A stretch of DNA of 64,000 nucleotides from a virus (lineage: Duplodnaviria > Caudoviricetes). Under the pieces are notes generated by a model that saw only the letters and a list, made by a program, of their open reading frames with translations, searched no databases and had not been told where the DNA came from. Position 1 is the first letter of the stretch, and every line of letters begins with the position of its first letter. The stretch covers positions 1 to 64,000 of the IMG/VR virus record IMGVR_UViG_3300034059_000003; one strand, written 5' to 3'. This document shows positions 52,249-63,728 of the stretch, in pieces. Both the position numbers and the translations under genes were made by a program.

Positions 52249-54240
52249 TTAGTTCTTTATAAAAGTGTCGTCAAATATTACAAAATCGTTTCCATATTTT
52301 ACGTAATTATTTACCAATGGTGGACTTGATGTAGTAAATTCTACATCACTACCATAACCAGTCCCAGCACTATTTGTTGCATATGCACGAATATGATATA
52401 TAGTTGATGCGGTAAGTCCCGATAAAGAACTTGTAAACGATCCTTCTCCTGTACCATCGGAAGTATGTGTATCTGTCGTAGTAGGATTAATAGATGTACT
52501 CCAACATATTCCTTTAACAGTTACAGTACCATTACCATCAGATGTTACATTACCTCCGGAAGAGGCTGTAGTGGTAGTTATATTTGAAGTGGATGTTGTA
52601 GTAACAGTTGGAACAACAACTGTTATTGTACCATATTGAAAAGCACCTATACTTGGATTTGTACCATCAAATGATTCTCCGTTGAAGTCAAGAAGAATAT
52701 CAAGATCCTGGCCTGCTGTTTTTATTGTTGACGAAGATGTTAAAGTATAATCTCCACCAGATAGATCAGTAAATAATGGATTAACAAAGTAACCATGCAA
52801 TTCCCAACTTAATACACTCTGCAATGATGATAGAGTATTCATATAATACATTGCTGAACTTTCGTTTTCAACAACACGAAGAGAATTACTAACGCGATAG
52901 TAAGCATTATAATCTGCAGTCTGATAAGTTAAATCACGGCCATAGGCACGTACAAAGAGTTCACAACCATTATTGTCGTCAGTACTGGTTGTGTAAAAGA
53001 CATTATTCTTTATTCTAATAGTATCGTTGTTTGCATCAATCCAAACATGTGCCCAAGAAGTTGACTTATGATTTACAAAAGTATTATTATAGATATAAAC
53101 ACTTTGAGCTCCCTCCATATTTATTGAGGCAGATACAGGGGAAATAAAAACATTAGAATAGATATAGAGATTACAAATAGTTGATGAGAGATCAGAATAG
53201 TCATAGTTCTGAACAAAGATCTGATGCACGTCGTTCGTTGCATTATTATTTGTGTCATCAAAACTATTTCTCCGTATAATTGTATTATGAATCTTCATAC
53301 CTGTACCATTGCCTACTGAAATATCAACACCGGTTGTATGATAACAGTTATAAAACTCATTATCTTCTATAATAATGTTTGAAACAAGATATCCACCATA
53401 TAAATGAAAGGAAAGAGCTCTTCTTCCAATATCATGCATCTTACAATTTTTTACAAGCATTTCATTATATATTGCTTGTGTACCATAAGCATCTTCAGAG
53501 TTTTTAATACCTATATATCCTAACTCAAGATTCTGAATTTTTAAACCTGTCTTTTCTTGCCAACCACCATCTGCAGCATCAAACTGAATCCCGGCATAAC
53601 CACAATAAAAAATATTAACGCCATTTATATCGATGTAATTTTGGTAGTTAAGATCTATAATAAACGATTGTTGTGGTATTTCTATAGAAGTATATCTGGT
53701 ATCTGGATCTGTCACAGCATATACATAAACTTTTCCACCTGTGTAATACCAATTATATTCTGCAGTTAAATATGCAATTCCTGTTTTATGTATTCCCCAT
53801 GTTACTGCTCCTGAAGTGCTTTCAAAGAAGACCTCACAACCGCCAGGCCCTGATCGTCCATACATATCAGTTGCATCAGGATCTGTAACAGTCGCATCAC
53901 AAACCCATACATTAGTACTATATGATGACCATGTTGACTTTACAGAACCAAGGATCCTTGGATTATCACCGGTACCATATTTTCCTATGATAATATAATT
54001 TGCTGTAGTTCCACTTCCGGTAAGTGACAACATACCACGAAAAGTGTCACCACACTTGAAAAGGACCTGATCTCCGGCCACAAGAGTTGTAGCATTGACT
54101 TTTGTTATACTTGCCCATGCGAGTACCTCTGTCTGGCCTGAATCGTTGTCATTACCATCAGAAGAACTTACATAATATATTGTCGCATACAATGGAGATG
54201 CGATAAGAACCATCAATAATATAAGAATCTTTTTCATCAT
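52249..54240 (-). CDS. Signal-peptide-bearing right-handed beta-helix (pectin-lyase-like) protein with C-terminal FN3
   Basis: MMKKILILLMVLIASPLYA|TIYYVSSSDGND.NSG-type N-terminus, GD.VLFK.GD.F.G, repeated I.NN.F strands, and an FN3 unit ending RAYATNSAGTGYGSDVEFTT. Confidence 0.78.
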   Translation of the reverse strand: MMKKILILLMVLIASPLYATIYYVSSSDGNDNDSGQTEVLAWASITKVNATTLVAGDQVLFKCGDTFRGMLSLTGSGTTANYIIIGKYGTGDNPRILGSVKSTWSSYSTNVWVCDATVTDPDATDMYGRSGPGGCEVFFESTSGAVTWGIHKTGIAYLTAEYNWYYTGGKVYVYAVTDPDTRYTSIEIPQQSFIIDLNYQNYIDINGVNIFYCGYAGIQFDAADGGWQEKTGLKIQNLELGYIGIKNSEDAYGTQAIYNEMLVKNCKMHDIGRRALSFHLYGGYLVSNIIIEDNEFYNCYHTTGVDISVGNGTGMKIHNTIIRRNSFDDTNNNATNDVHQIFVQNYDYSDLSSTICNLYIYSNVFISPVSASINMEGAQSVYIYNNTFVNHKSTSWAHVWIDANNDTIRIKNNVFYTTSTDDNNGCELFVRAYGRDLTYQTADYNAYYRVSNSLRVVENESSAMYYMNTLSSLQSVLSWELHGYFVNPLFTDLSGGDYTLTSSSTIKTAGQDLDILLDFNGESFDGTNPSIGAFQYGTITVVVPTVTTTSTSNITTTTASSGGNVTSDGNGTVTVKGICWSTSINPTTTDTHTSDGTGEGSFTSSLSGLTASTIYHIRAYATNSAGTGYGSDVEFTTSSPPLVNNYVKYGNDFVIFDDTFIKN

Positions 54241-55724
54241 TCTATTCCTTTAGAGTTTGAATCCATGTATGTTTCTATAGCTGCATTGACATCATCTACT
54301 AAACCTGCCAATGAACCACCAAGATGAACAACAGATATCTGTGCATCACAAAAACGTTTTGGTACTGGTCCAGTTGGCGCATTAATGCAAAGAATATACG
54401 GTTTTGCATAACTATTAACAGCGGTTGAAGTATATGATGCTGTTTCAAGTAAAGTCCCGTTTCTATATAACACTAAATCAGATGAATTTGGCTTATCAAC
54501 TGTCCAATAACCTCTTGATTCACCACTCCATTCATTTGCATAATCTTCTCCACCAGTACTATTAAGACAGTATATAACACCATATGAACCAAATGAAGAA
54601 GAAAATTGATTGTATGCATTACCATCATTAGTACATCCGAACATCCATTTACCTTCTGTTGCTGTGTACCCAACACGAACATAAAGTCCATAAGATGCAT
54701 TGTTTAGTGTATATTTAGTCAAATTACTAAGATACATTCCACCAGCTTCAAGATAACCATTACTCGTATCATCTCCACCTTCAGTTGCAGTACCTTTAAA
54801 TCCTTCATATGCTGTAAATACCGGGGTATTATGAATGATAGAATTATAAGTACCAGGATTCTTCCAATTGATTAAAGCCTCTGAACCACTATTTGAATGA
54901 GTGGCAAATACATAGAATATATCAAATGTTGTCCAGGCACCACACGCTTTCAATGTTTTAACCAGTGTATTCTGATTGGATCCAACCGCTACAGACGGTT
55001 TATTGGTCATTGCATTATAAACAGCATAATATTCATCAGTATATATATCACCAGCTTCAAATAAATCACCGAGAGTTACTCCATTATTATAACCAGTTAT
55101 ACCTGCCTTTCCAGAAGTATATTCTGTTACTGTAGCTGAACCACTTGTGCCAACACCAGTATCAACTGATCCATTTAGATATGCAGTTATGGTAGTACCA
55201 TTAATTTCTAATCTTACAGTAGCACCTGCACTTATTGATGCAGTACCTGCTGATCCAAGATTTGTCTTTACACCATTATCTATTCTAAATAAACGCTGTG
55301 TACCATTCATTACATAGTAACCATATCCACAAGTTGTAGCCCCAGTACCAGATAATCTAACACCAACTCCCATTGCATCACTTACATCACCAACATTTGA
55401 TATTGTTATTTGTGCATATTGATTTGTACCGAAAGTGGCATCATATTGAGCAACTGTAACTGAAGTAGAAGTATAAGACTGAACTAATCTCGCACCATTT
55501 CCACCATCATATACAGTAATGGAATTTAATAAAACATCCCAATTACCTTGTCCATTTAGAGATGCTACAGAATAGGTGTTGAAGTTATCCGTATATGCCG
55601 GACCATAATGTAATGTTTCTCCTGAAGGAACACGATATGAAGAGGCAACTACGCCAGGTATTACCTGTGATGTTACAGATAGCGATACTATAAGTAACGA
55701 TAGAAGAAATGTTAACTTTTTCAT
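54237..55724 (-). CDS. Signal-peptide-bearing lectin/LamG-like (beta-sandwich) fibre-associated protein
   Basis: MKKLTFLLSLLIVSLSVTS|QVIPGVVASS; G/T/S-rich beta domains (VRLEINGTTITAYLNG, LVLYRNG). Confidence 0.6.
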   Translation of the reverse strand: MKKLTFLLSLLIVSLSVTSQVIPGVVASSYRVPSGETLHYGPAYTDNFNTYSVASLNGQGNWDVLLNSITVYDGGNGARLVQSYTSTSVTVAQYDATFGTNQYAQITISNVGDVSDAMGVGVRLSGTGATTCGYGYYVMNGTQRLFRIDNGVKTNLGSAGTASISAGATVRLEINGTTITAYLNGSVDTGVGTSGSATVTEYTSGKAGITGYNNGVTLGDLFEAGDIYTDEYYAVYNAMTNKPSVAVGSNQNTLVKTLKACGAWTTFDIFYVFATHSNSGSEALINWKNPGTYNSIIHNTPVFTAYEGFKGTATEGGDDTSNGYLEAGGMYLSNLTKYTLNNASYGLYVRVGYTATEGKWMFGCTNDGNAYNQFSSSFGSYGVIYCLNSTGGEDYANEWSGESRGYWTVDKPNSSDLVLYRNGTLLETASYTSTAVNSYAKPYILCINAPTGPVPKRFCDAQISVVHLGGSLAGLVDDVNAAIETYMDSNSKGIE

Positions 55725-57553
55725 GCTTCAATGTCTCCAATTAAAATCCATGTATCTGTGTCTGTCTTAATTATAGTGCAACTGGACCATTGTACTCTAA
55801 GATCCTTATAACTTCCAGCACTATTAAGCGTACCTCCTGAAGTAATTGCTATTGTCGTTTCTCCTGCACCACCCTGTATAATTGTAATCTGTGTTCCTGT
55901 TGGAAAAGCAACTGAAGAATTAAGAGGAATAGTAAATGTATTGGCAGATGCATTAGTCATCGTAACAATCTTATAAGCATCACCAATTACTGCTGTATAC
56001 GTTGTTCCTGTCTGTGCATTAAGAGTAACACTCTTTGGTGCTTTTGCATCAAGTTGTGTTTGTACAGCACTTGTTACACCATCCATATATGCAAGTTCAG
56101 TAGCATCTACAGAACTTACTGATGTTCCCCATGCAGATCCTGTTGAAATAGGAATTCCGGCTCCAGGATATACCATACTACCACTACCATTTGCAACCCA
56201 AGATCTCGTTCCTCCAGTTGTTGAAGATAGAACATATCCAGTCGTTCCTGGATTACCAAGAGAACTTTCTTTTGCTGCAAGACCTGTTGTTAAATCATAA
56301 TTTGATGCATAATGTCCCGAGCCAGGTACTGAGTCTGCAATCATCACTGCTAAACTTGATAAAGAAATTGCACCACCAAGTCTTGCAGAAATACTATCAT
56401 TAATCAATGTTGGGATAGTAGACATCGCATATGCTGTAGTTGCTATCTGTGTAGTATTTGTCTTTGCAGTAGCAGTTGGAGCAATTGGAACCCCTGTTAA
56501 TGTTGAACTTGTAAGTATTGTCTCTTTTGATTCATTAGTAACGTTACCAAGACCAACATCAGATGAAACAAGAGAAAGGGCAGTTTTAAAATTTGCAACG
56601 GATAAGGTTGAAATAGTATTATCAGCATTAAACCTTGGAAATGTTATTGCTCCTGGATTTGTAAGAGTAAATATATTACTACCTATTGTTGTCGCTCCTA
56701 ATGACGTTCTTCCTGTAGCAGCTGTCAATCCTGTTGCACCACCGTCCCACTTAAGACGGTCTGTATAAGCAGTAACTGCATTAGTGCCGTTAGTATTTAC
56801 CCAAGTATATGCAGTATTCCAATTCGTTGAGTTATCTGTTATTGACGTACCCCAAGCAGAAGAACCTCCATAAACAACAATTCCGGCTGTTGCCGGCCAT
56901 GTCATTGATCCTCCACTACCATTTGCAACCCAAGATCGTACTCCGGCTGCCGAAGAAGATAATACATAACCATCAGTTCCTGGATTACCTAATGCTGCTT
57001 CTGCAGATATAGCAGTTCTGAAGTTTGCTGCACTTAATGTCGAAACAGTATTATTAGCATTTATTTGAGGAAATGTAATGGCACCAGGATCTGATAGTGT
57101 AAAAAAATTGCTACCAACTGTTGTTGCACCAAGAGATGTTCTACCAGTTGCAGCAGTAAGTCCAGTAGAACCTCCATCCCATTTTAATCTATCTGTATAA
57201 GCTGTTACGGCATTAGCCCCATTTGAATTAACCCAAGTATAAGCGGTATTCCAGTTTGTAGAGTTGTTTGTTATACTCGTTCCCCAAGATGTACCTGCAG
57301 AAACAGCAATGCCGGCAGTAGGATATACCATTGTTCCACCACCGGAGTTATAAACATAGTCACGTACATCTTGTAATGATGCTACAGTGTCAGTTGTTCC
57401 AATAAGGAGTGTTGCTTTATTAAAGGCGACAGAATCCTTAAAGAATGATTTGTATCTTATAGGAACCCATCCATTTGATAATCTGAATCTCGTTTGACCG
57501 CATGAGATCAATGTAAAACAGATTAGAACCGAAATGATTAGACTTTTTTTCAT
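55721..57553 (-). CDS. Signal-peptide-bearing tail-fibre-like protein with internal duplication
   Basis: MKKSLIISVLICFTLISCG|Q; T/A/G-rich repeats; C-terminal fibre domain TLNAQTGTTYT...FTIP.N.SVAFP.GTQI.I.Q.GAG...K.DTDTW.LIGD. Confidence 0.7.
   Translation of the reverse strand: MKKSLIISVLICFTLISCGQTRFRLSNGWVPIRYKSFFKDSVAFNKATLLIGTTDTVASLQDVRDYVYNSGGGTMVYPTAGIAVSAGTSWGTSITNNSTNWNTAYTWVNSNGANAVTAYTDRLKWDGGSTGLTAATGRTSLGATTVGSNFFTLSDPGAITFPQINANNTVSTLSAANFRTAISAEAALGNPGTDGYVLSSSAAGVRSWVANGSGGSMTWPATAGIVVYGGSSAWGTSITDNSTNWNTAYTWVNTNGTNAVTAYTDRLKWDGGATGLTAATGRTSLGATTIGSNIFTLTNPGAITFPRFNADNTISTLSVANFKTALSLVSSDVGLGNVTNESKETILTSSTLTGVPIAPTATAKTNTTQIATTAYAMSTIPTLINDSISARLGGAISLSSLAVMIADSVPGSGHYASNYDLTTGLAAKESSLGNPGTTGYVLSSTTGGTRSWVANGSGSMVYPGAGIPISTGSAWGTSVSSVDATELAYMDGVTSAVQTQLDAKAPKSVTLNAQTGTTYTAVIGDAYKIVTMTNASANTFTIPLNSSVAFPTGTQITIIQGGAGETTIAITSGGTLNSAGSYKDLRVQWSSCTIIKTDTDTWILIGDIEA
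56573..57286 (-). repeat. Two ~94-aa direct repeats (57005-57286 and 56573-56854; period 432 nt)
   Basis: WGTSIT.NSTNWNTAYTWVN.NG.NAVTAYTDRLKWDGG.TGLTAATGRTSLGATT.GSN.FTL..PGAITFP occurs twice. Confidence 0.9.
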
Positions 57554-58125
57554 TAGTATATTATTTTAATTCGTACATCATCAATTGCATCAGAAGAATA
57601 CACGGTAATTACATAAATACCACCGACAAGACTTATTATTGGATCACCAAGATTCTTAGTAATCACAATACCATCAGAATCAATGAACTCAATATTATAT
57701 GGTTCATATGTCAATGTTGTAGTAATTATGTTATTACCAACAACAAGATCTTGTGTTATTGTATATTTTGCCATGTCGGAAACAGTGTTAGTTGTTGGAG
57801 TAGTAACAATAGGAGTTGTATTTGAACTCCTTTCATAGTTATATCTGTCCAGTTCGCGGTAAGCATCGTCAATTATACTTTGGATATCATTAACAGTAAG
57901 TACATTATAGTATTCTGTTACAGCAACATCACCTATTACCTGATAACGATAAAGTATCTCAATATACTTTGAAATTAAGATGTTTCTTTTATTAAGGTTG
58001 GCAAGAAATAACTGACCTCCTGTATGATAAGCAAAAGACTTTGACAGGTCTTCAGCAAGACGACTATGCAATAATTGAATTGTTGCTATATCACTATTCA
58101 ATATATTCTGATCCAGAACTTGCAT
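57553..58125 (-). CDS. Hypothetical (probably structural) protein
   Basis: 190 aa, coupled to both neighbours; helical N-half, beta-rich C-half after a T/P linker. Confidence 0.55.
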   Translation of the reverse strand: MQVLDQNILNSDIATIQLLHSRLAEDLSKSFAYHTGGQLFLANLNKRNILISKYIEILYRYQVIGDVAVTEYYNVLTVNDIQSIIDDAYRELDRYNYERSSNTTPIVTTPTTNTVSDMAKYTITQDLVVGNNIITTTLTYEPYNIEFIDSDGIVITKNLGDPIISLVGGIYVITVYSSDAIDDVRIKIIY

Positions 58126-60475
58126 TTGCTTTTAAATTATCAAATGTTAAACTATCAACAATATAGTTAATTCTATTATCTTGGGACATCCATTTAGAAA
58201 TTAAATCCCTTTCTGCTATAGTGTTATGATGAGAGGAAGGTTTTATTTTTTCTTCAAGAAAATAATGACTTTTTTCACTTTGAAAAAATGTGAATCCAGA
58301 AATAATTATATTCTTAAATCCAAGAGCTCGGGCTATTCCAATAGCCATTATGCCTACAGTTGGAAATGCATTTATCTCTTCCGTAACTTCTCTGAATAAC
58401 ATAGCAAAAGCATCATTATTTCCATAAGTATAAACTACATTGCCATTCTTTATTAATTTCTCAGCATTATTCAACCAATGTAGATGCATCATTTTTGCAG
58501 AAGTATATTTTTGGTACAAATTATCTGATATCGGAAGAACACCAAGTATTGGATAATCAACCTTTCCAGAAGGGATAATCTCATGATAAAGACTCGAAAT
58601 ATTAAGATCTATTTTTGATCCGATTTCTTTATATTGTTCTCCTATCTTGAAATTATTACATCTCATAACAAAAGAATGATCAATTTTATCTGAGAGATCT
58701 GTTCTGAATGGACCATTCCCTATTACTGAACAGGTATCGAAATCTTTACACAGTTTCTCTATTTCAGTAAATAGAAAATTATATTTGTCTGATTTATAAT
58801 CAGGAACCTCTTTCTTTAAAGAAACTTTATCCTTGAACCGTCTTGATGCTTGATGATGTGAAACTACTGGATTATCACACTGTAAAAATTGATTATCCCA
58901 AATATAAATATACTCTTTTGGTAAATCAGCAACAATTATATCAGTATATCCACTAATCACCAATTGGAAATTAGGTGCATCGGGATTATTGTTGGTTGAA
59001 TTTAACTGAATCCACTTATTTAATATTTCTCTTGTTACAGTATTGTTTTTAAAATACATTGTCCCGGTCATCTTTTCATTCCACTCTTTTATATAATGGA
59101 ATGAAATATCACAATTAAGAGAATAAAAGAATTCAGGATCTCTTAAAACTTCAGCATCAGCATCAATCCATACAACATCTTTGTTGTATTTATCCATTAC
59201 ACTCTTTATAACTTGTGGTTTCATTTGAGTGTTTAATTCCCAGGATCCCTGATTCCTTAATCCAACAATTTCATAAGGCAAATTAAACTTATCAAGAGAC
59301 TTCTTTAGTGTTTCAACTTCTTTTTCATATGGTGTGTCTGAAGTAAACATGCTGACATATATTATATCGTTCTTTCCAGACATAGAAAAATTCAACTTAT
59401 CTTCAATGAATTTAAGATTTTGTTCATTCTGATTACGTATGTCTTCTGGAATTCCATCACAGAACTTTACCATTAATGCATGTTCTTTTGCCTGTATAAA
59501 ATTACCAATCCAATAATAACAGATAGCAAGTTCGAAATCAGCCTGGAATCTTTTATTTGTTAAATGAATAAACAGTTTATCCGTCTTTGGATATGACATT
59601 CTTAATACTTCTTCCTGTATAATTCGTGCAAGATGATATTTCTTTTTCTCGCGATAAATCAATCCAAGCATAAACAAGGCCTCAAATCTTGTTGGCCGAT
59701 ATGAATAGGCTTCTGCTAATTGTATTGTTGCACTATCATAATTCTTAAGATGATACTGAAGAACTCCTATCTGGAATAATGAATAGTAAACCTCTTCTTC
59801 CCAACCCATTCTACGAACTCTTTCTTCATAATATTTTATAGCTTTTTCATATTCTTGCATATTGGCATATGTCTGAGCCAGATAGAAATAGTTCCGTGTT
59901 TCATTTGGATTATCGACAATTGCTTTCTCAAGTAGATCTCTATCACGAACAAGTTTTTCCTTTCTTGATCCACCATCGGCATGATGAATAATAGATAACT
60001 CATGTAATTCAGGACTTTCTCCACAATTAGTTGAATTGATATATTCATGTGTTACTCCAGTATAGAACCAATGCTTATTGCCATTTACAAGGAGTATCTG
60101 AGCGAAATCAAGATCACCAAGATATCTTAAATGATACCAATCATACTTCAATGTGTTTTTGTCAAATGAATCTAAGATGACATATTCAAAATCAGCATCA
60201 GCCAATAATAAATAACTCGACTTGTCATAAGCGAGTTCCATCAATTCATTCCTATTATGTCCAAAATTAACCCAAGATCTTTCGTGTATTTCTCCTGGAA
60301 TATCTCCCATTGTTTCTTTTATCACTGCGATTGTGTTATCAGTAGATCCAGTGTCAACAATGCAGTAATAATCAATAATTGACTTACAACTATTGATTAA
60401 TCTTGCAATTGTTTTTTCTTCTTGTTTAACAATTGCACATAAACAGATAGTTTTGTTTGTTACTGTTGATTCCAT
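58094..60475 (-). CDS. Multi-domain glycosyltransferase: GT2 + TPR + second GT-A domain + GT29 (sialyltransferase)-like domain
   Basis: LCAIVKQEE..I.RL..S......IVDTGSTD and DAD (GT2); TPR helices; W..NT.MKP..I....VVWIDADA and HHQASR; CSVIGNG...VMRCNN, PTVG..AI...IIISGF and HH...ER (sialylmotif L/S/VS-like). Confidence 0.82.
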   Translation of the reverse strand: MESTVTNKTICLCAIVKQEEKTIARLINSCKSIIDYYCIVDTGSTDNTIAVIKETMGDIPGEIHERSWVNFGHNRNELMELAYDKSSYLLLADADFEYVILDSFDKNTLKYDWYHLRYLGDLDFAQILLVNGNKHWFYTGVTHEYINSTNCGESPELHELSIIHHADGGSRKEKLVRDRDLLEKAIVDNPNETRNYFYLAQTYANMQEYEKAIKYYEERVRRMGWEEEVYYSLFQIGVLQYHLKNYDSATIQLAEAYSYRPTRFEALFMLGLIYREKKKYHLARIIQEEVLRMSYPKTDKLFIHLTNKRFQADFELAICYYWIGNFIQAKEHALMVKFCDGIPEDIRNQNEQNLKFIEDKLNFSMSGKNDIIYVSMFTSDTPYEKEVETLKKSLDKFNLPYEIVGLRNQGSWELNTQMKPQVIKSVMDKYNKDVVWIDADAEVLRDPEFFYSLNCDISFHYIKEWNEKMTGTMYFKNNTVTREILNKWIQLNSTNNNPDAPNFQLVISGYTDIIVADLPKEYIYIWDNQFLQCDNPVVSHHQASRRFKDKVSLKKEVPDYKSDKYNFLFTEIEKLCKDFDTCSVIGNGPFRTDLSDKIDHSFVMRCNNFKIGEQYKEIGSKIDLNISSLYHEIIPSGKVDYPILGVLPISDNLYQKYTSAKMMHLHWLNNAEKLIKNGNVVYTYGNNDAFAMLFREVTEEINAFPTVGIMAIGIARALGFKNIIISGFTFFQSEKSHYFLEEKIKPSSHHNTIAERDLISKWMSQDNRINYIVDSLTFDNLKANASSGSEYIE

Positions 60476-60512
60476 TTTTCCTGTCTTAAATTTATACTTT
60501 GAATCTTCATAT

Positions 60513-60520
60513 CAAAGTTA
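60513..60520 (-). promoter_or_regulatory. Putative Bacteroidota sigma70 -7 element upstream of the glycosyltransferase
   Basis: TAACTTTG on the - strand in the 52-nt gap, about 38 nt upstream of ATG60475; same 8-mer as 775-782. No clear -33 box. Confidence 0.45.
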
Positions 60521-60527
60521 TATCATT

Positions 60528-61880
60528 TTATGTATGAAACACATTTGTCCAATCATTATCGTATGCACAAATAGCCTGAGTCGATAATCCTAACCAAGCA
60601 GTTCCATCTATTACTTCAGGAATTAAAACACCACTTCTTAAATGTTTGCATGCATAATTCTGAACCATCCATACTTGACCACCTATTAGAACCGTGTCAT
60701 AAATATTACCATCATAATCAGAAACCTTTTCTCCTTCAGTATATCCAGTTAAATTGTCTCTTATTAACCTTATCGCACACCCTTGTTTTTTAATAATAGA
60801 TCTTGCTAATATTGCTTCTCCGGTAGCAACAAATTTATTCGCATATGCATTTACTCCATATGATAAACTATCTTCTGTATTTGTCCACAGTTCTCCAACA
60901 TTCTTTAATTGTTGAAAATTAGCAACTAATAAACCGTTTCTTATACCATTTCCTACTGCTGTAAATCCTGAACTATTTGTTGCACCCTCATCGTCACTAA
61001 TCCAATGTATTATTCCAGTTTCTCTGCAGGCTTTATTTACTTCTATCAAAGTACTCCAATTATTAAATAATGTTTGGTATTCGGATGTAGAAGGAATATG
61101 CCATCCTATTGGTGGTGTTAATGCATTATTCGCAGCGTACCAATTATATAAAAGACCATAATTTATTACATTACTATAACCAGGTAAAAATACATAATCC
61201 CAATTATTGTCATAAGCACAACATCCTGGTGTAATTAATTCAAACCATGAATTAGCATTTTGTACTTCTGGAATTGGAACTCCATTTGAAAAATGTGTTA
61301 CAGCAAGATTTTGTTGAAGCCAAACCTGCGTACCAATCTTTACAGTAGTATAAATATTTCCATCATAATCTCTAACTACCATTCCGGGATACCATTGAGA
61401 CGTATCTATTAATAGACATCTTATCGACATACCCCATTTTTTGTCATCGTTTGCAGGTGATCCTCCAACTACTGTATACGCATATTCATGTATAGAATCA
61501 TATCTTATTTGTTGAACATAAGTTAGGTTATTATGAAAATATCCAGAATTTTTTAATCCATCAAAATATGGAGATACATTATAAATACTATATCTCCAAC
61601 CACCGCCAAATATTGTAAGTTTTGAACTGTTTGTTGCGCCAGTATTAGGATAATTCCAATGGATATATCCAACTTCTTTACATTTACCTCCTGCAATTGA
61701 TATTCCACCAAGATAATTCCATAATGTAGTCCAATCGGCTAAAAGTGGAACTTTCCATCCTATAGGAGCAATTCCATTTGAACTATTGGCTGCATACCAA
61801 TTATAAAGTAAACCATATGAAATATTAGATACTGGTCTTATAGAATTAAGTAATGATCTGAAGATAGAAGAACTTCTCAT
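60528..61880 (-). CDS. Tandem, circularly permuted FISUMP (Fib_succ_major) domain protein
   Basis: Two ~219-aa units, each YGLLYNWYA...GW..P...ATNSS...G..IR(C)L followed by DYDGNIY.TV.IG.QVW..QN...CAYDN.W. Confidence 0.8.
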   Translation of the reverse strand: MRSSSIFRSLLNSIRPVSNISYGLLYNWYAANSSNGIAPIGWKVPLLADWTTLWNYLGGISIAGGKCKEVGYIHWNYPNTGATNSSKLTIFGGGWRYSIYNVSPYFDGLKNSGYFHNNLTYVQQIRYDSIHEYAYTVVGGSPANDDKKWGMSIRCLLIDTSQWYPGMVVRDYDGNIYTTVKIGTQVWLQQNLAVTHFSNGVPIPEVQNANSWFELITPGCCAYDNNWDYVFLPGYSNVINYGLLYNWYAANNALTPPIGWHIPSTSEYQTLFNNWSTLIEVNKACRETGIIHWISDDEGATNSSGFTAVGNGIRNGLLVANFQQLKNVGELWTNTEDSLSYGVNAYANKFVATGEAILARSIIKKQGCAIRLIRDNLTGYTEGEKVSDYDGNIYDTVLIGGQVWMVQNYACKHLRSGVLIPEVIDGTAWLGLSTQAICAYDNDWTNVFHT

Positions 61881-61883
61881 TTC

Positions 61884-63728
61884 TTATTGTGTATATGGTC
61901 CTCCAATATTCCAATAGAATCCGGTATTATCATAGATAAACGATACTATCGTTCTCTCGTTTGGTCCTGTGAATATGTTTTTTTCAGTACCATCTTTGAA
62001 ATAATTTGTTCCTGTAAAAGACAAAGAATGTCCGCCAGAGGCATCTTGAAAAACAAGTAAATTTCCACATTCCCCGCTTAGAACATTTGATAATATAATA
62101 GTCGTATTCTGTGTTAAGAATAATTTTGCATTATATCCTTGTGAAAGATTCCAATGAACACCTGCAGTTGAATTATCAAGTCTCAGAAATGCCTTTTGTG
62201 CTTCAGCTGGTCCTGTAGGACCTATTAATCCTTGTGAACCGGAAGGACCAGTTGGTCCCATAGAACCTTGCATTGCTTCAACAAACAATCTTGCCTTCAT
62301 TACCTGAAGATATCCACTACCTGTTGATCTCCTATATCTTCCTTTAATAGTATGTGACCCTATAGATAAAGCATCAAACCTTACTATTACAGGAATCATT
62401 TGTGGATTTAATGAATCAAGATATATTTGATGTTCTCCAGAGTCTACACCATCAACTTGAACAGCAAGTGCAAGAGTAGATGCACCACCAGCACCTCTTG
62501 TTGTATCAAGTCTTACTTCACAATTTAACGTAATGAGTAACTCAACAGATTCATTCAAAATAATTGTTGTAATGACACCAGAAATATCTTCTAAAGTCGA
62601 TGATACTGTTCCTGAAGAAGTAAGTTTCTCAATATATGAACTTGGTATTTTACCTGCAATAGCATCAATACCTGCAGGACCAGTAGACCCTTGTACTCCT
62701 GTTAGCCCAATTGGACCAGTTGGTCCGGTTATTCCTTGTGCTCCTATTGAACCAGTCGATCCTTTTGAACCTGTAGGACCTACAGATCCTGTATTGCCTT
62801 TTGCACCTGTAGGACCTGTTACAGATAATCCAGATGCGCCTGTCGGCCCTATTGGACCTGTTGGACCCAAAGGTCCTGTTGGACCGGTTACAGACGGTCC
62901 AGTACTACCTTGTGGACCGGTAGGACCCGGTGCATATGCGCCACCATAAAGATTTATTTTCCAATCAGAGTAAGTTCCTGATCCAGTATGATTTATCGAT
63001 TGTACTGATAATTCTCCTGAAGCACCGGTATAATTAACAACTGATGCTCTGAATAAGTTATTAACATCATAAGCAATAACAACATCTTGTCCTGTTGTAT
63101 ATGCTCTTCCTGTAGAACAAGTTATATCTATTCCTATAGGATGTGACGATGGGATTACTATTGTATCGGAAGATAAAGATGCATATCTCTCTCCTATTCC
63201 GGTTGCACCTGTTGGACCTTGTATCCCTTGTGGACCGGTTGGTCCTGCAGCGGTTGATGCGGCTCCGGTTATACCGGCAGGTCCTACTGCACCGGCTGGA
63301 CCTGTTGGACCGGTATTTCCTTGTGGACCTGTAGGTCCTTGGACACCTGTTGGACCGGTAGATCCCGGTATTATAGATGCTGGACCAGTTGGTCCTGTAC
63401 TTCCTTTTGATCCTGCCGGTCCTGATGGTCCGGCAATTCCTTGTATTCCGGTTGCACCTTTTATCCCAATTGGACCTGTCACACCTTTAGGTCCTACTGT
63501 TCCTGTAACACCACGCGGTCCAGTTGGTCCTACACCTTGAGGTCCTGTTGGTCCTACTGCACCGGTAGGTCCTCTTTGTCCTGCCGGTCCAGGAATACTT
63601 GTACCTGGTAAGACTGTTAATCCTGAGAGAATAATGTTTTTATTATCATTCCTTGCAGGTTCAACTGCATAACCAGAACTCCCAGTAATAGAGGGAGATG
63701 GTCCTAAGAATTGTGCCCCAGTACTCAT
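61884..63728 (-). CDS. Collagen-like (Gly-Pro-Thr-rich) tail fibre protein
   Basis: Three G-X-Y blocks separated by globular domains; C-terminal W.LS.GYNA.L.LT.N......N...G....L...QD..GG domain. Confidence 0.85.
62670..63590 (-). repeat. Collagen G-X-Y repeat blocks (63192-63590 and 62670-62927; short third block ~62200-62275)
   Basis: GPT/GPQ/GAT/GST triplets; Thr is frequent at the Y position. Confidence 0.9.

Follow-up and report, generated by a model that had tools for sequence, protein, structure and literature searches.

A 793-residue protein with several predicted glycosyltransferase domains (P0001), encoded near a threonine-rich collagen-like gene in a phage genome, raises the question of what it glycosylates: the fibre of the phage itself, another virion protein or the host cell. 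The DNA analysed (the window) comprises 64,000 nucleotides, positions 1 to 64,000 of the IMG/VR record IMGVR_UViG_3300034059_000003. Its source is an uncultured crAss-like phage of the Crassvirales, with a major capsid protein 37% identical to crAss-like phage major capsid proteins, and the DNA was found in wastewater metagenomes, not animal samples. The transferase and collagen genes are located in the structural arm of the genome, in a tight string of genes on the same strand (Table 1; intergenic gaps of 3, 52, -32 and -1 nt). The open reading frame of P0001 is real and uninterrupted, and the four domain ranges assigned in a preliminary description (corresponding to aa 6-190, 191-332, 369-549 and 581-782) agree with the Pfam and modelling results. 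The function proposed here, with a probability of about 0.6, is that P0001 O-glycosylates the collagen fibre of the phage itself, step by step, in the host cytoplasm; the domain identities, conservation and gene linkage on which the proposal is based are established.

Table 1. Genes and domains of the transferase-collagen locus, in window coordinates.
Feature	Coordinates	Strand	Basis or remark
P0002, collagen-like fibre protein, 614 aa, proposed acceptor	61884..63728	(-)	Pfam Collagen; tail-fibre PHROGs
P0003, FISUMP (Fib_succ_major) tandem protein, 450 aa	60528..61880	(-)	PF09603; TIGR02145
P0001, three-transferase protein, 793 aa	58094-60475	(-)	single uninterrupted ORF
P0001 aa 1-175, GT2 catalytic domain of SgtA/GmaR/SunS type	59951..60475	(-)	Pfam; profile versus PDB; BLASTP; hhalign
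P0001 aa 176-362, TPR/helical-repeat domain	59390..59950	(-)	TPR Pfam families; SgtA alignment
P0001 aa 363-562, compact GT-A domain, A64R-like	58790..59389	(-)	AF2; Foldseek; VIA
P0001 aa 563-793, GT29 domain	58097..58789	(-)	PF00777; AF2; structure matches; hhalign
P0004, 190 aa, possibly fibre-hub protein	57553..58125	(-)	start overlaps GT stop by 32 nt

[quoted passage not shown] BLASTP aligns aa 9-324 with aa 3-323 of the 358-aa SgtA protein of C. difficile (E 2e-14, 25% identity), the hhalign comparison of the P0001 family profile with SgtA gives a probability of 99.8% (E 1.9e-28, 315 columns), and the TPR parts of the two proteins can be aligned up to SgtA residue 323, so that residues 1-362 are classified by these alignments as an end-to-end homologue of SgtA. 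The SgtA open reading frame used here was retrieved via a published primer, agrees with the 358 aa, 10 Cys and 42.1 kDa of the published protein, and adjoins a bclA3-like collagen gene. SgtA transfers beta-O-GlcNAc onto threonines of the GPT repeats of BclA3, and the sgtA gene adjoins bclA3 (PMC7157674). Like the N-terminal part of P0001, SgtA has a GT-A (GT2) domain and then TPRs, some 360 residues in all, is soluble and cytoplasmic, and is encoded beside a Gly-Pro-Thr-rich collagen-like gene; however, it is a stand-alone bacterial enzyme with a spore-surface substrate, whereas the P0001 module comes from a crAss-like phage, where two further transferase domains are fused to it. The sugar and acceptor of P0001 are predicted from homology.

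The best matches of the GT2 profile in the PDB are GmaR (2.6e-22), SunS (8.6e-21) and 7msk (3.9e-16), the next GT2 catalytic domain being that of chondroitin synthase at only about 7e-5, which places the predicted priming domain in the protein- and peptide-glycosylating GT2 clade. GmaR, itself a GT2-TPR enzyme, is the flagellin O-GlcNAc transferase of Listeria (PMC9638930); together with SgtA it bears out the preliminary description, which had cited flagellins and BclA-type collagen-like spore proteins as substrates of such enzymes. GmaR has the same order of transferase and TPR domains as P0001, and it and SunS/ThuS (PDB 7msn, 7msk), all of which act on proteins or peptides, have the closest solved catalytic domains. 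P0001 differs from GmaR, which has an anti-repressor domain and flagellin as its substrate; from SunS, which makes S-linkages to cysteine rather than the O-linkage proposed here; and from all three in its fusion to further glycosyltransferases.

The middle domain (aa 363-562) has no Pfam match, but its AF2 model (pLDDT 83.6) has a GT-A fold, with an invariant D438-A-D440 motif. Its best Foldseek match is A64R of the chlorovirus PBCV-1 (2p6w, E 2.7e-9), on which 176 of 207 residues superimpose with a Z score of 18.3 and an rmsd of 2.7 A according to VIA (glycogenin, 16.2), whereas similarity to the chlorovirus enzymes is undetectable at the sequence level. In PBCV-1, A064R (domain 1 = PDB 2p6w/2p72/2p73) and A111/114R are multi-domain glycosyltransferases that make capsid-protein glycans, and multi-domain assembly lines for virion glycans are known in chloroviruses (PMC9614988, PMC7826918). 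A064R resembles P0001 as a single virus-encoded polypeptide with several transferase domains, and its methyltransferase domain is paralleled among the sister proteins of P0001, in which a methyltransferase, rhamnosyltransferase or RmlD domain has been added or swapped in, as expected if the modules build glycans. The chlorovirus enzymes also work in the cytoplasm and need no host machinery of the ER/Golgi type, as is proposed for P0001, but they belong to a virus of eukaryotes, make N-linked capsid glycans, and have neither a GT2-TPR primer nor a GT29 domain. That the nearest structure to the middle domain is a virus enzyme glycosylating a capsid protein supports modification of the phage's own fibre.

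The last domain matches Pfam Glyco_transf_29 (PF00777) at aa 575-763 (28.4 bits, cut-off 23, E 1.4e-6), and sialylmotifs L, S, III and VS each have a conserved counterpart in it. Its AF2 model (pLDDT 92.8) has the GT29/GT42 fold that the preliminary description had anticipated, and its best PDB matches are all sialyltransferases (Z 13.6 for ST3Gal-I and ST6GalNAc2, 12.9 for Cst-I). Of 43 distant relatives of the domain, 40 likewise fall within Pfam GT29, and a group of bacterial GT29-like proteins is matched by hhalign with E 3.8e-28. The domain lacks a membrane anchor and the motif-L/motif-S disulfide cysteines, and on this basis is classified as a bacterial-type GT29. This family, described earlier as uncommon in prokaryotes, is rare in bacteria yet known there: the bacterial GT29-like proteins of Petit et al. 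2018 (PMC5811610) likewise have four sialylmotifs, no transmembrane anchor and no conservation of the disulfide cysteines. Those matched by hhalign are stand-alone proteins of Planctomycetota and Proteobacteria, none with an assigned donor or acceptor, whereas the phage GT29 is a 230-residue terminal domain of a multi-domain protein; Petit et al. make no mention of viruses or phages. Across 30 homologues of P0001 (40-68% identity), the DxD motif is invariant in each of the two GT-A domains, as are GNG, PxxG, HY and HxxxxE in the GT29 domain. Neither a signal peptide nor a membrane segment was found in P0001, which is predicted to be soluble.

Of the 76 Gly-X-Y triplets in the collagen-like protein P0002 (Pfam Collagen, E 6e-26; also tail-fibre PHROGs), 37 have Pro at X and 31 have Thr at Y; the triplets are arranged in seven runs with globular parts between them. 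P0002 is the Thr-rich fibre previously reported beside the transferase. No signal peptide was found in it. Its N-terminal ~35 aa are conserved in 7 phages while the remainder varies, as expected for a virion-docked fibre. Richness in Gly-Pro-Thr is a general trait of many bacterial and phage collagen-like proteins, and so by itself is no mark of a substrate. The intervening gene product P0003 (PF09603, E 7e-47; TIGR02145) is possibly a distal binding module; relatives fill this slot with unrelated ORFs (170-320 aa), so that it is variable, and P0003 is outside the conserved part of the system. On the other side, the first ~96 aa of P0004 are kept as a 97-aa gene directly after the transferase gene in all six relatives with downstream DNA. 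P0004 has no family match in Pfam, PHROGs or NCBIfam and no BLASTP similarity to crAss001 gp39.

In 6/6 related crAss-like contigs with upstream DNA, the transferase gene has, 0-2 genes upstream, a collagen-like ORF in which Thr occupies 46-61% of the Y positions, but the seven loci are one lineage, the synteny of which counts as one observation, and within it this linkage is inseparable from the equally constant linkage of the transferase gene to the 97-aa downstream gene. Outside the lineage, a collagen-like ORF occurs within 10 kb in 13 of 43 dereplicated viral GT2-TPR loci (directly adjacent in 5 of the 13), in a raw count uncorrected for the background frequency of such genes; a test against random placement, applied to collagen ORFs lying 1.5 kb or less from the transferase, gives only P = 0.086.

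The equally constant linkage of the downstream gene, which overlaps the transferase gene, could indicate that P0001 acts on virion proteins other than the collagen fibre, such as the product of that gene, the capsid, or proteins of the hub or ring. The virion would be glycosylated in that case too, and P0004 of the source phage carries a Thr-rich linker, but that linker was not found in relatives, the first module of P0001 shares homology along its whole length with an enzyme that has a GPT collagen repeat as its proven substrate, and collagen genes recur beside GT2-TPR genes in unrelated viruses; such targets are considered unlikely. There is precedent in mycobacteriophages (Freeman et al. 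2023, as cited in PMC12619734), in which phage glycosyltransferases modify the phage's own structural proteins, at the C-termini of capsid and tail-tube proteins. The account cited there concerns Actinobacteria hosts and other glycosyltransferase families, with neither collagen nor GT29 in it; it is of experimentally shown glycosylation, whereas that by P0001 is predicted from sequence and models. Phage glycosyltransferases that change host serotype are also well known (reviewed in PMC12619734), and the bacterial GT29-like genes stand alone in their genomes and may plausibly serve in making surface glycans (PMC5811610). P0001 might accordingly act on a host surface protein, lipid-linked glycan precursor, LPS or capsule, and thereby mask receptors, sparing progeny loss on debris, or exclude other phages. 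Its donors must be host-derived under any reading. Serotype-converting glycosyltransferases are typically prophage-expressed and membrane-associated, whereas P0001 is predicted to be soluble and is encoded within a virion-structure gene string of a Crassvirales phage; the cultured members of this group are not known as classical lysogens. Since the priming GT2 also belongs to a protein- or peptide-glycosylating clade and has a TPR substrate-binding domain, and linkage to the fibre gene is conserved, a host target is quite improbable, and less likely than the fibre.

Sialylation, which had been raised as a possibility, is not sustained. The Pfam match, the four sialylmotifs and the structural matches to Neu5Ac transferases would fit a true sialyltransferase and a fibre ending in Neu5Ac, which in an animal host would bring mucus binding or immune mimicry. 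However, the structural matches are uninformative about the donor because every family member with a solved structure happens to be a Neu5Ac enzyme, the GT29 is of bacterial type, and the source DNA is from wastewater. No NeuB is encoded in the source genome and no CMP-sugar synthetase in it or in four related records. As far as is known, every Gram-negative host contains CMP-Kdo. GT29-like proteins of bacteria and plants are found in organisms that lack sialic acid; Kdo-type sugars have been discussed for these proteins (PMC5811610). A Neu5Ac cap is accordingly unlikely. As the source phage encodes no nucleotide-sugar or CMP-sugar enzymes, donor assignments for P0001 are guesses, and Kdo or a different ulosonic acid is just as possible.

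With an SgtA-related first module and a GT29-type last module beside a collagen gene, the phage probably sugar-coats its own fibre. P0001 would be a late-expressed protein of three activities that builds a short O-linked glycan on P0002 before or during tail assembly. By homology, its SgtA-like GT2 domain, guided by the TPRs, would place the first sugar on Thr (or Ser) at position Y of Gly-X-Thr triplets, perhaps, if the analogy with SgtA and GmaR holds, a HexNAc donated by a UDP-sugar. Judging from its fold, the A64R-like domain with its DxD motif may then add a second sugar from a nucleotide-diphospho-sugar, and the family of the GT29 domain suggests that it adds an acidic 2-keto-3-deoxy sugar from the host CMP-sugar pool as the cap, either Kdo or a nonulosonic acid (for example pseudaminic, legionaminic or neuraminic acid). 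The earlier scheme of priming, extending and capping a glycan on the phage's own fibre is the best supported of the readings, through the SgtA homology, the conserved gene pair, the predicted solubility, the late operon and the conserved active sites, whereas we infer the order of the steps. If the fibre is indeed modified in this way, the likely benefits to the phage would be a stabilised triple helix in a collagen that has no hydroxyproline and a charged, hydrated fibre surface, as well as protection from proteases and altered adhesion.

P0001, the three-transferase fusion protein (GT) encoded in the fibre module of this uncultured crAss-like phage, begins with a domain (aa 1-362) that passes the Pfam cut-off for GT2 (PF00535, 30.3 bits, cut-off 23.3), contains TPR repeats and is spanned from aa 9 to aa 362 by PHROG 13126; its D41-T-G-S-x-D46 and D93-A-D95 motifs are invariant in alignments of 30 and of 18 sequences. 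When a GT2 profile built from 18 viral homologues was run against all PDB sequences, it covered the whole catalytic domain of GmaR (E = 2.6e-22), SunS (8.6e-21) and the ThuS-like 7msk (3.9e-16), the next-best GT2 catalytic-domain match being chondroitin synthase at only ~7e-5; as judged from sequence, domain 1 is closer, among solved structures, to the GT2 enzymes that glycosylate proteins or peptides than to polysaccharide GT2s. GmaR of Listeria is a flagellin O-GlcNAc transferase in which a GT domain of ~180 aa is followed by TPRs (PMC9638930). The closest precedent in the literature is the SgtA-BclA3 system of C. difficile: SgtA (358 aa, GT-A plus TPR) puts beta-O-GlcNAc on the Thr of Gly-Pro-Thr triplets in the collagen-like BclA3, and sgtA adjoins bclA3 (PMC7157674). 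An sgtA gene was retrieved from a metagenome record via the published forward primer; its ORF (358 aa, 10 Cys, 42.1 kDa) matches the published protein (PMC7157674) and has a GPT/GAT collagen gene next to it. P0001 aa 9-324 align with aa 3-323 of this SgtA by BLASTP (E = 2e-14), and the domain 1 profile matches it by hhalign with 99.8% probability (E = 1.9e-28) over 315 columns. Since these matches extend over the catalytic and TPR parts, domain 1 is a homologue of SgtA, and the GT2 domain with TPRs that the preliminary description had read from the sequence is borne out.

The source record is a single contig of 85.9 kb, estimated to be 88% complete, and its first 64 kb make up the window. Genes for the terminase, portal and major capsid protein, recognised by PHROG matches, lie just outside the window on the minus strand, in the same long string as the GT genes. 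Because the major capsid protein shares ~37% identity with its counterparts in Bacteroides, Cellulophaga and Flavobacterium crAss-like phages, the phage is placed as a distant member of the Crassvirales; its DNA is present in wastewater metagenome runs of two studies. The genes around P0001 are tightly packed, with gaps of 3, 52, -32 and -1 nt.

Features of the GT gene string and of neighbouring regions (genome positions)
Feature	Position	Strand	Remarks
P0001 glycosyltransferase fusion	58094-60475	-	intact ORF, 793 residues
Collagen-like protein, 614 aa	61884-63728	-	upstream of GT
FISUMP-domain protein, 450 aa	60528-61880	-	upstream of GT; tandem FISUMP (Fib_succ_major)
P0004, 190 aa	57553-58125	-	downstream of GT; start overlaps GT stop by 32 nt
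Three consecutive fibre-module ORFs (610, 495, 663 aa)	52249-57553	-	signal-peptide-like N-termini; lipobox-like L-I-S-C in the first
Single uninterrupted ORF, 6393 aa	19395-38576	-	
ORF antisense to collagen gene, 138 aa	62533-62949	+	'conserved' at a second locus (L010) too
Terminase large-subunit ORF, 1078 aa	74764-78000		beyond the window; L001:11764-15000 in the locus of analysis

What lies between the collagen and GT genes differs among phages: the FISUMP gene here, unrelated ORFs of 170-320 aa in related phages. P0004 is conserved only over its first ~96 aa, and relatives have a separate gene of 97 aa directly after GT; in the source phage the protein continues with a linker rich in Thr and another ~75 aa that form its C-terminal half. 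When the N-termini of the fibre-module ORFs were compared, those of the three genes that follow P0004 resembled signal peptides, and no such N-terminus was found on the collagen, FISUMP, GT and P0004 proteins; the collagen would thus be the fibre-module protein that stays in the compartment of the enzyme. The antisense ORF within the collagen gene most probably arises as an artefact of the repetitive, GC-rich sequence that encodes the collagen and is no gene. Elsewhere in the genome, the 6393-aa ORF comes after ORFs of 773 and 522 aa downstream of a 1699-aa muzzle-like gene, and sits where crAss001 has its virion RNA-polymerase genes, which are apparently fused in the source phage. The terminase match is confined to aa 642-1052 of its ORF, the N-terminal half of which has weak primase/helicase PHROG matches; the ORF could have arisen by fusion or by insertion. 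Searched against phages, the muzzle-gene region had no blastn match, and neither P0004 nor the upstream 254-aa protein had a tblastn match; at the high divergence involved, the two proteins flanking the cassette showed no BLASTP similarity to gp38 and gp39 of crAss001, with which placement between the hub genes THA and THB was checked.

Approximately 45 full-length homologues of P0001, 40-68% identical to it, are encoded on contigs of up to 101 kb, and both DxD motifs as well as the GT29 motifs are invariant in 30 of them. The full fusion occurs at seven crAss-like IMG/VR loci (the lineage), the flanks of which are syntenic with the source phage. Co-occurrence of this GT with collagen genes, which the preliminary description had named as a check on virion glycosylation, is consistent within the lineage: a collagen-like ORF with 27-88 triplets in long runs and Thr at 46-61% of Y positions lies zero to two genes upstream of GT at all six loci that include upstream DNA. 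The conserved 97-aa gene follows GT at all six loci that include downstream DNA. An N-terminal segment of ~35 residues is conserved among the lineage collagens, which otherwise vary widely, from 436 to 1717 aa in overall size and also in what domains make up the C-terminus; this is how a fibre would look if it were anchored to the virion at a conserved site and its distal end were free to vary. On its own, the GT2-TPR module is widespread among viruses, with 463 confirmed stretches in IMG/VR, some of them in jumbo phages and giant-virus bins, and outside the lineage its co-occurrence with collagen genes holds at some loci only. A collagen-like ORF was found within 10 kb at 13 of 43 dereplicated viral GT2-TPR loci, a figure that comes without a background rate, and was adjacent at five; in these non-lineage loci, clustering of collagen ORFs within 1.5 kb of the GT2-TPR gene was not significant (random-placement P = 0.086). 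A rough post-hoc count, which is given no weight here, looks stronger: direct adjacency in 5 of the 13, where some 20 neighbouring genes would lead one to expect roughly 1 in 10.

Domain 2 (aa 363-562) has no Pfam match and no PDB match by phmmer or by profile search; one P0001 homologue has a precomputed match to PF03407. Its AlphaFold model is a compact GT-A domain (pLDDT 83.6), for which the top Foldseek match is PBCV-1 A64R (E = 2.7e-9), superimposed with a VIA Z of 18.3 and an rmsd of 2.7 A over 176 of 207 residues at 11-12% identity in the structural alignment. A64R scores two Z units above glycogenin; the LH3/GLT25D collagen glucosyltransferases and GT6 enzymes score lower. A64R glycosylates the capsid protein of a chlorovirus, and domain 2 is predicted by the model to have the same compact GT-A fold of ~200 residues with a DxD motif. 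In 30 homologues D438-A-D440 is invariant, and the second DxD GT-A domain that had been proposed is thereby upheld.

Domain 3 (aa 563-793) matches the GT29 family of Pfam (PF00777, Glyco_transf_29) with 28.4 bits (cut-off 23), aa 575-763 covering positions 50-268 of the 272 in the model; the match was confirmed at the DNA level, and GT29 was detected in none of 14 control genomes. According to a 42-sequence alignment, with motifs defined from PMC5811610 and general knowledge, the sialylmotifs vary little or not at all: GNG...ID...V-R-x-N-N-F (L), P-x-x-G...G-F-x-F-F (S), H-Y (III) and H-x4-E (VS). In domain 3 numbering, R43, N45, P143, G146, G165 and H188 are invariant and H175-Y176 and E193 nearly so. 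The structural model (pLDDT 92.8) has sialyltransferases as all of its top matches, and by this model domain 3 is a GT-A variant 2 (sialyltransferase) fold. ST3Gal-I, ST6GalNAc2, ST8SiaIII and ST6Gal1 give Z values of 12.5-13.6 (ST3Gal-I and ST6GalNAc2 13.6, with an rmsd of 3.1 A over 178-180 residues); since Cst-I of family GT42 (12.9; Cst-II 11.5) lies within one Z unit, the fold alone cannot separate GT29 from GT42. An MptE-type HPPK structure scores beneath the sialyltransferases (11.1), and lower scores drop off after it. P0001 does not match PF06002 (GT42, Cst-I/Cst-II) at E values up to 0.1; Cst-II is the best PDB match to domain 3 by sequence (E = 2.4e-4) because GT29 and GT42 share a superfamily. 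A Maf/MptE-like nonulosonic-acid transferase (PF01973) was considered and rejected, scoring 21.0 bits (cut-off 34.6) over aa 677-728 only.

The GT29-like domain with sialylmotifs is therefore retained from the preliminary description, and its animal-type character is not. Domain 3 has no hydrophobic segment or type II membrane anchor and no cysteine in motif S; bacterial GT29 enzymes likewise lack the anchor and the disulfide between motifs L and S (Petit et al., PMC5811610), so domain 3 is not an animal-type (Golgi) GT29 and is of the bacterial type instead. A search of 1.84 billion representative proteins yielded only 58 clusters at E values up to 1e-3, which fall into the phage lineage itself, a handful of close relatives that stand alone or are fused differently, and distant proteins that are mostly stand-alone and 190-300 aa long; among 43 of these distant proteins, Pfam GT29 recognises 40 (best E = 1.5e-35) and the GT42 family of CST-I (PF06002) recognises 4. 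One stand-alone group, found by means of a pattern at 11 loci among 185,579 species genomes, belongs to Planctomycetota (Pirellulales) and Proteobacteria and matches domain 3 by hhalign (E = 3.8e-28). Stand-alone GT29-like genes of ~240 aa were noted at loci L084-L091 in Pirellulales/Planctomycetota and a deltaproteobacterial MAG. Other viral proteomes contain GT29-fold proteins, in a choanoflagellate mimivirid and in an 'uncultured Caudovirales phage' entry named GT29, and phage GT29 is accordingly rare in databases rather than unprecedented.

The best-supported reading of P0001, with a probability of roughly 0.6, is that, as homology suggests, it would O-glycosylate the Gly-X-Thr collagen fibre of the phage itself, step by step and in the cytoplasm. 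The SgtA-like module would prime the presumed acceptor with a presumed first sugar, the A64R-like GT-A domain may extend the glycan with a second, and the GT29 domain may cap it with a putative acidic sugar, the order of the last two steps being presumed. The enzyme is predicted to be soluble and its gene lies within the late structural string. Triple-helix stabilisation together with a charged, protease-resistant surface is a plausible pay-off. The stabilisation idea is drawn from the glycosylated Thr of hydroxyproline-free collagens. Modules have been shuffled among relatives of the fusion (P0041, P0052, P0129, P0130 and P0133): a C-terminal methyltransferase is added (~1000 aa), a methyltransferase replaces the middle GT, a Rhamno_transf domain is added, or the arrangement becomes GT2+RmlD+GT2+GT29 (1525 aa) or GT2+GT2_4+GT9-like+GT29 (1414 aa). 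By analogy, such sister proteins, which add or swap methyltransferase, rhamnosyltransferase and RmlD domains, may behave like glycan assembly lines, and their module swaps recall the multi-domain GTs A064R and A111/114R of chloroviruses (PMC9614988, PMC7826918).

Another virion protein is an unlikely acceptor overall, the chief candidate being the small protein encoded downstream, the gene of which is as constantly linked to GT as the collagen gene is. A target on the host surface is quite unlikely for an enzyme predicted to be soluble and encoded in the structural string. DNA glycosylation was rejected as a function, considering the protein-/glycan-type GT-A domains, the TPR domain, the homology to SgtA and the location in a structural module. 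With respect to the donors used in glycosylation of the collagen fibre, a search of the source record found no second GT2, epimerase, nucleotidyltransferase, CMP-sugar synthetase or NeuB, and four related records, one of them 97% complete, likewise have no CMP-sugar synthetase; all donors must therefore be derived from the host. To our knowledge, CMP-Kdo is universal in Gram-negative hosts, and we infer that it is at least as likely a donor for the GT29 domain as a nonulosonic acid. The sialylation tentatively raised in the preliminary description is thus weakened: true sialylation with Neu5Ac would be surprising, as Neu5Ac specifically is unsupported and the phage encodes neither NeuB nor a CMP-sugar synthetase. 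The broader proposal is that the collagen fibres of a tailed phage carry O-glycans to which the phage itself, by means of a cytoplasmic, bacterial-type GT29 domain, adds an acidic cap resembling sialic acid, either Kdo or a nonulosonic acid; it is tentative, and the odds are somewhat against it.

The components and logic of such a system are already known from SgtA-BclA3, mycobacteriophage virion glycosylation and the multi-domain GTs of giant viruses; in the literature, no paper was found on a GT29 domain in a phage, and no description of a glycosylation system, or of a GT with collagen, in crAss-like phages. If the acidic capping is true, P0001 would be the first prokaryotic GT29-family enzyme with a defined function, its virion would be the first of a phage with an acidic-sugar cap, and a whole three-step pathway of protein O-glycosylation would reside on one polypeptide. 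Confirmation would supply the extension steps that SgtA-type collagen glycosylation still lacks and, the enzyme being soluble and its likely substrate encoded two genes away, a tractable model for bacterial-type GT29s; a single-chain, three-step O-glycosylation enzyme that acts on a simple Gly-Pro-Thr repeat may also find use in glyco-engineering. Virion glycosylation, shown to date for mycobacteriophages and giant viruses, would then reach the crAss-like phages, where glycan-coated fibres would bear on adsorption, stability and immune recognition.
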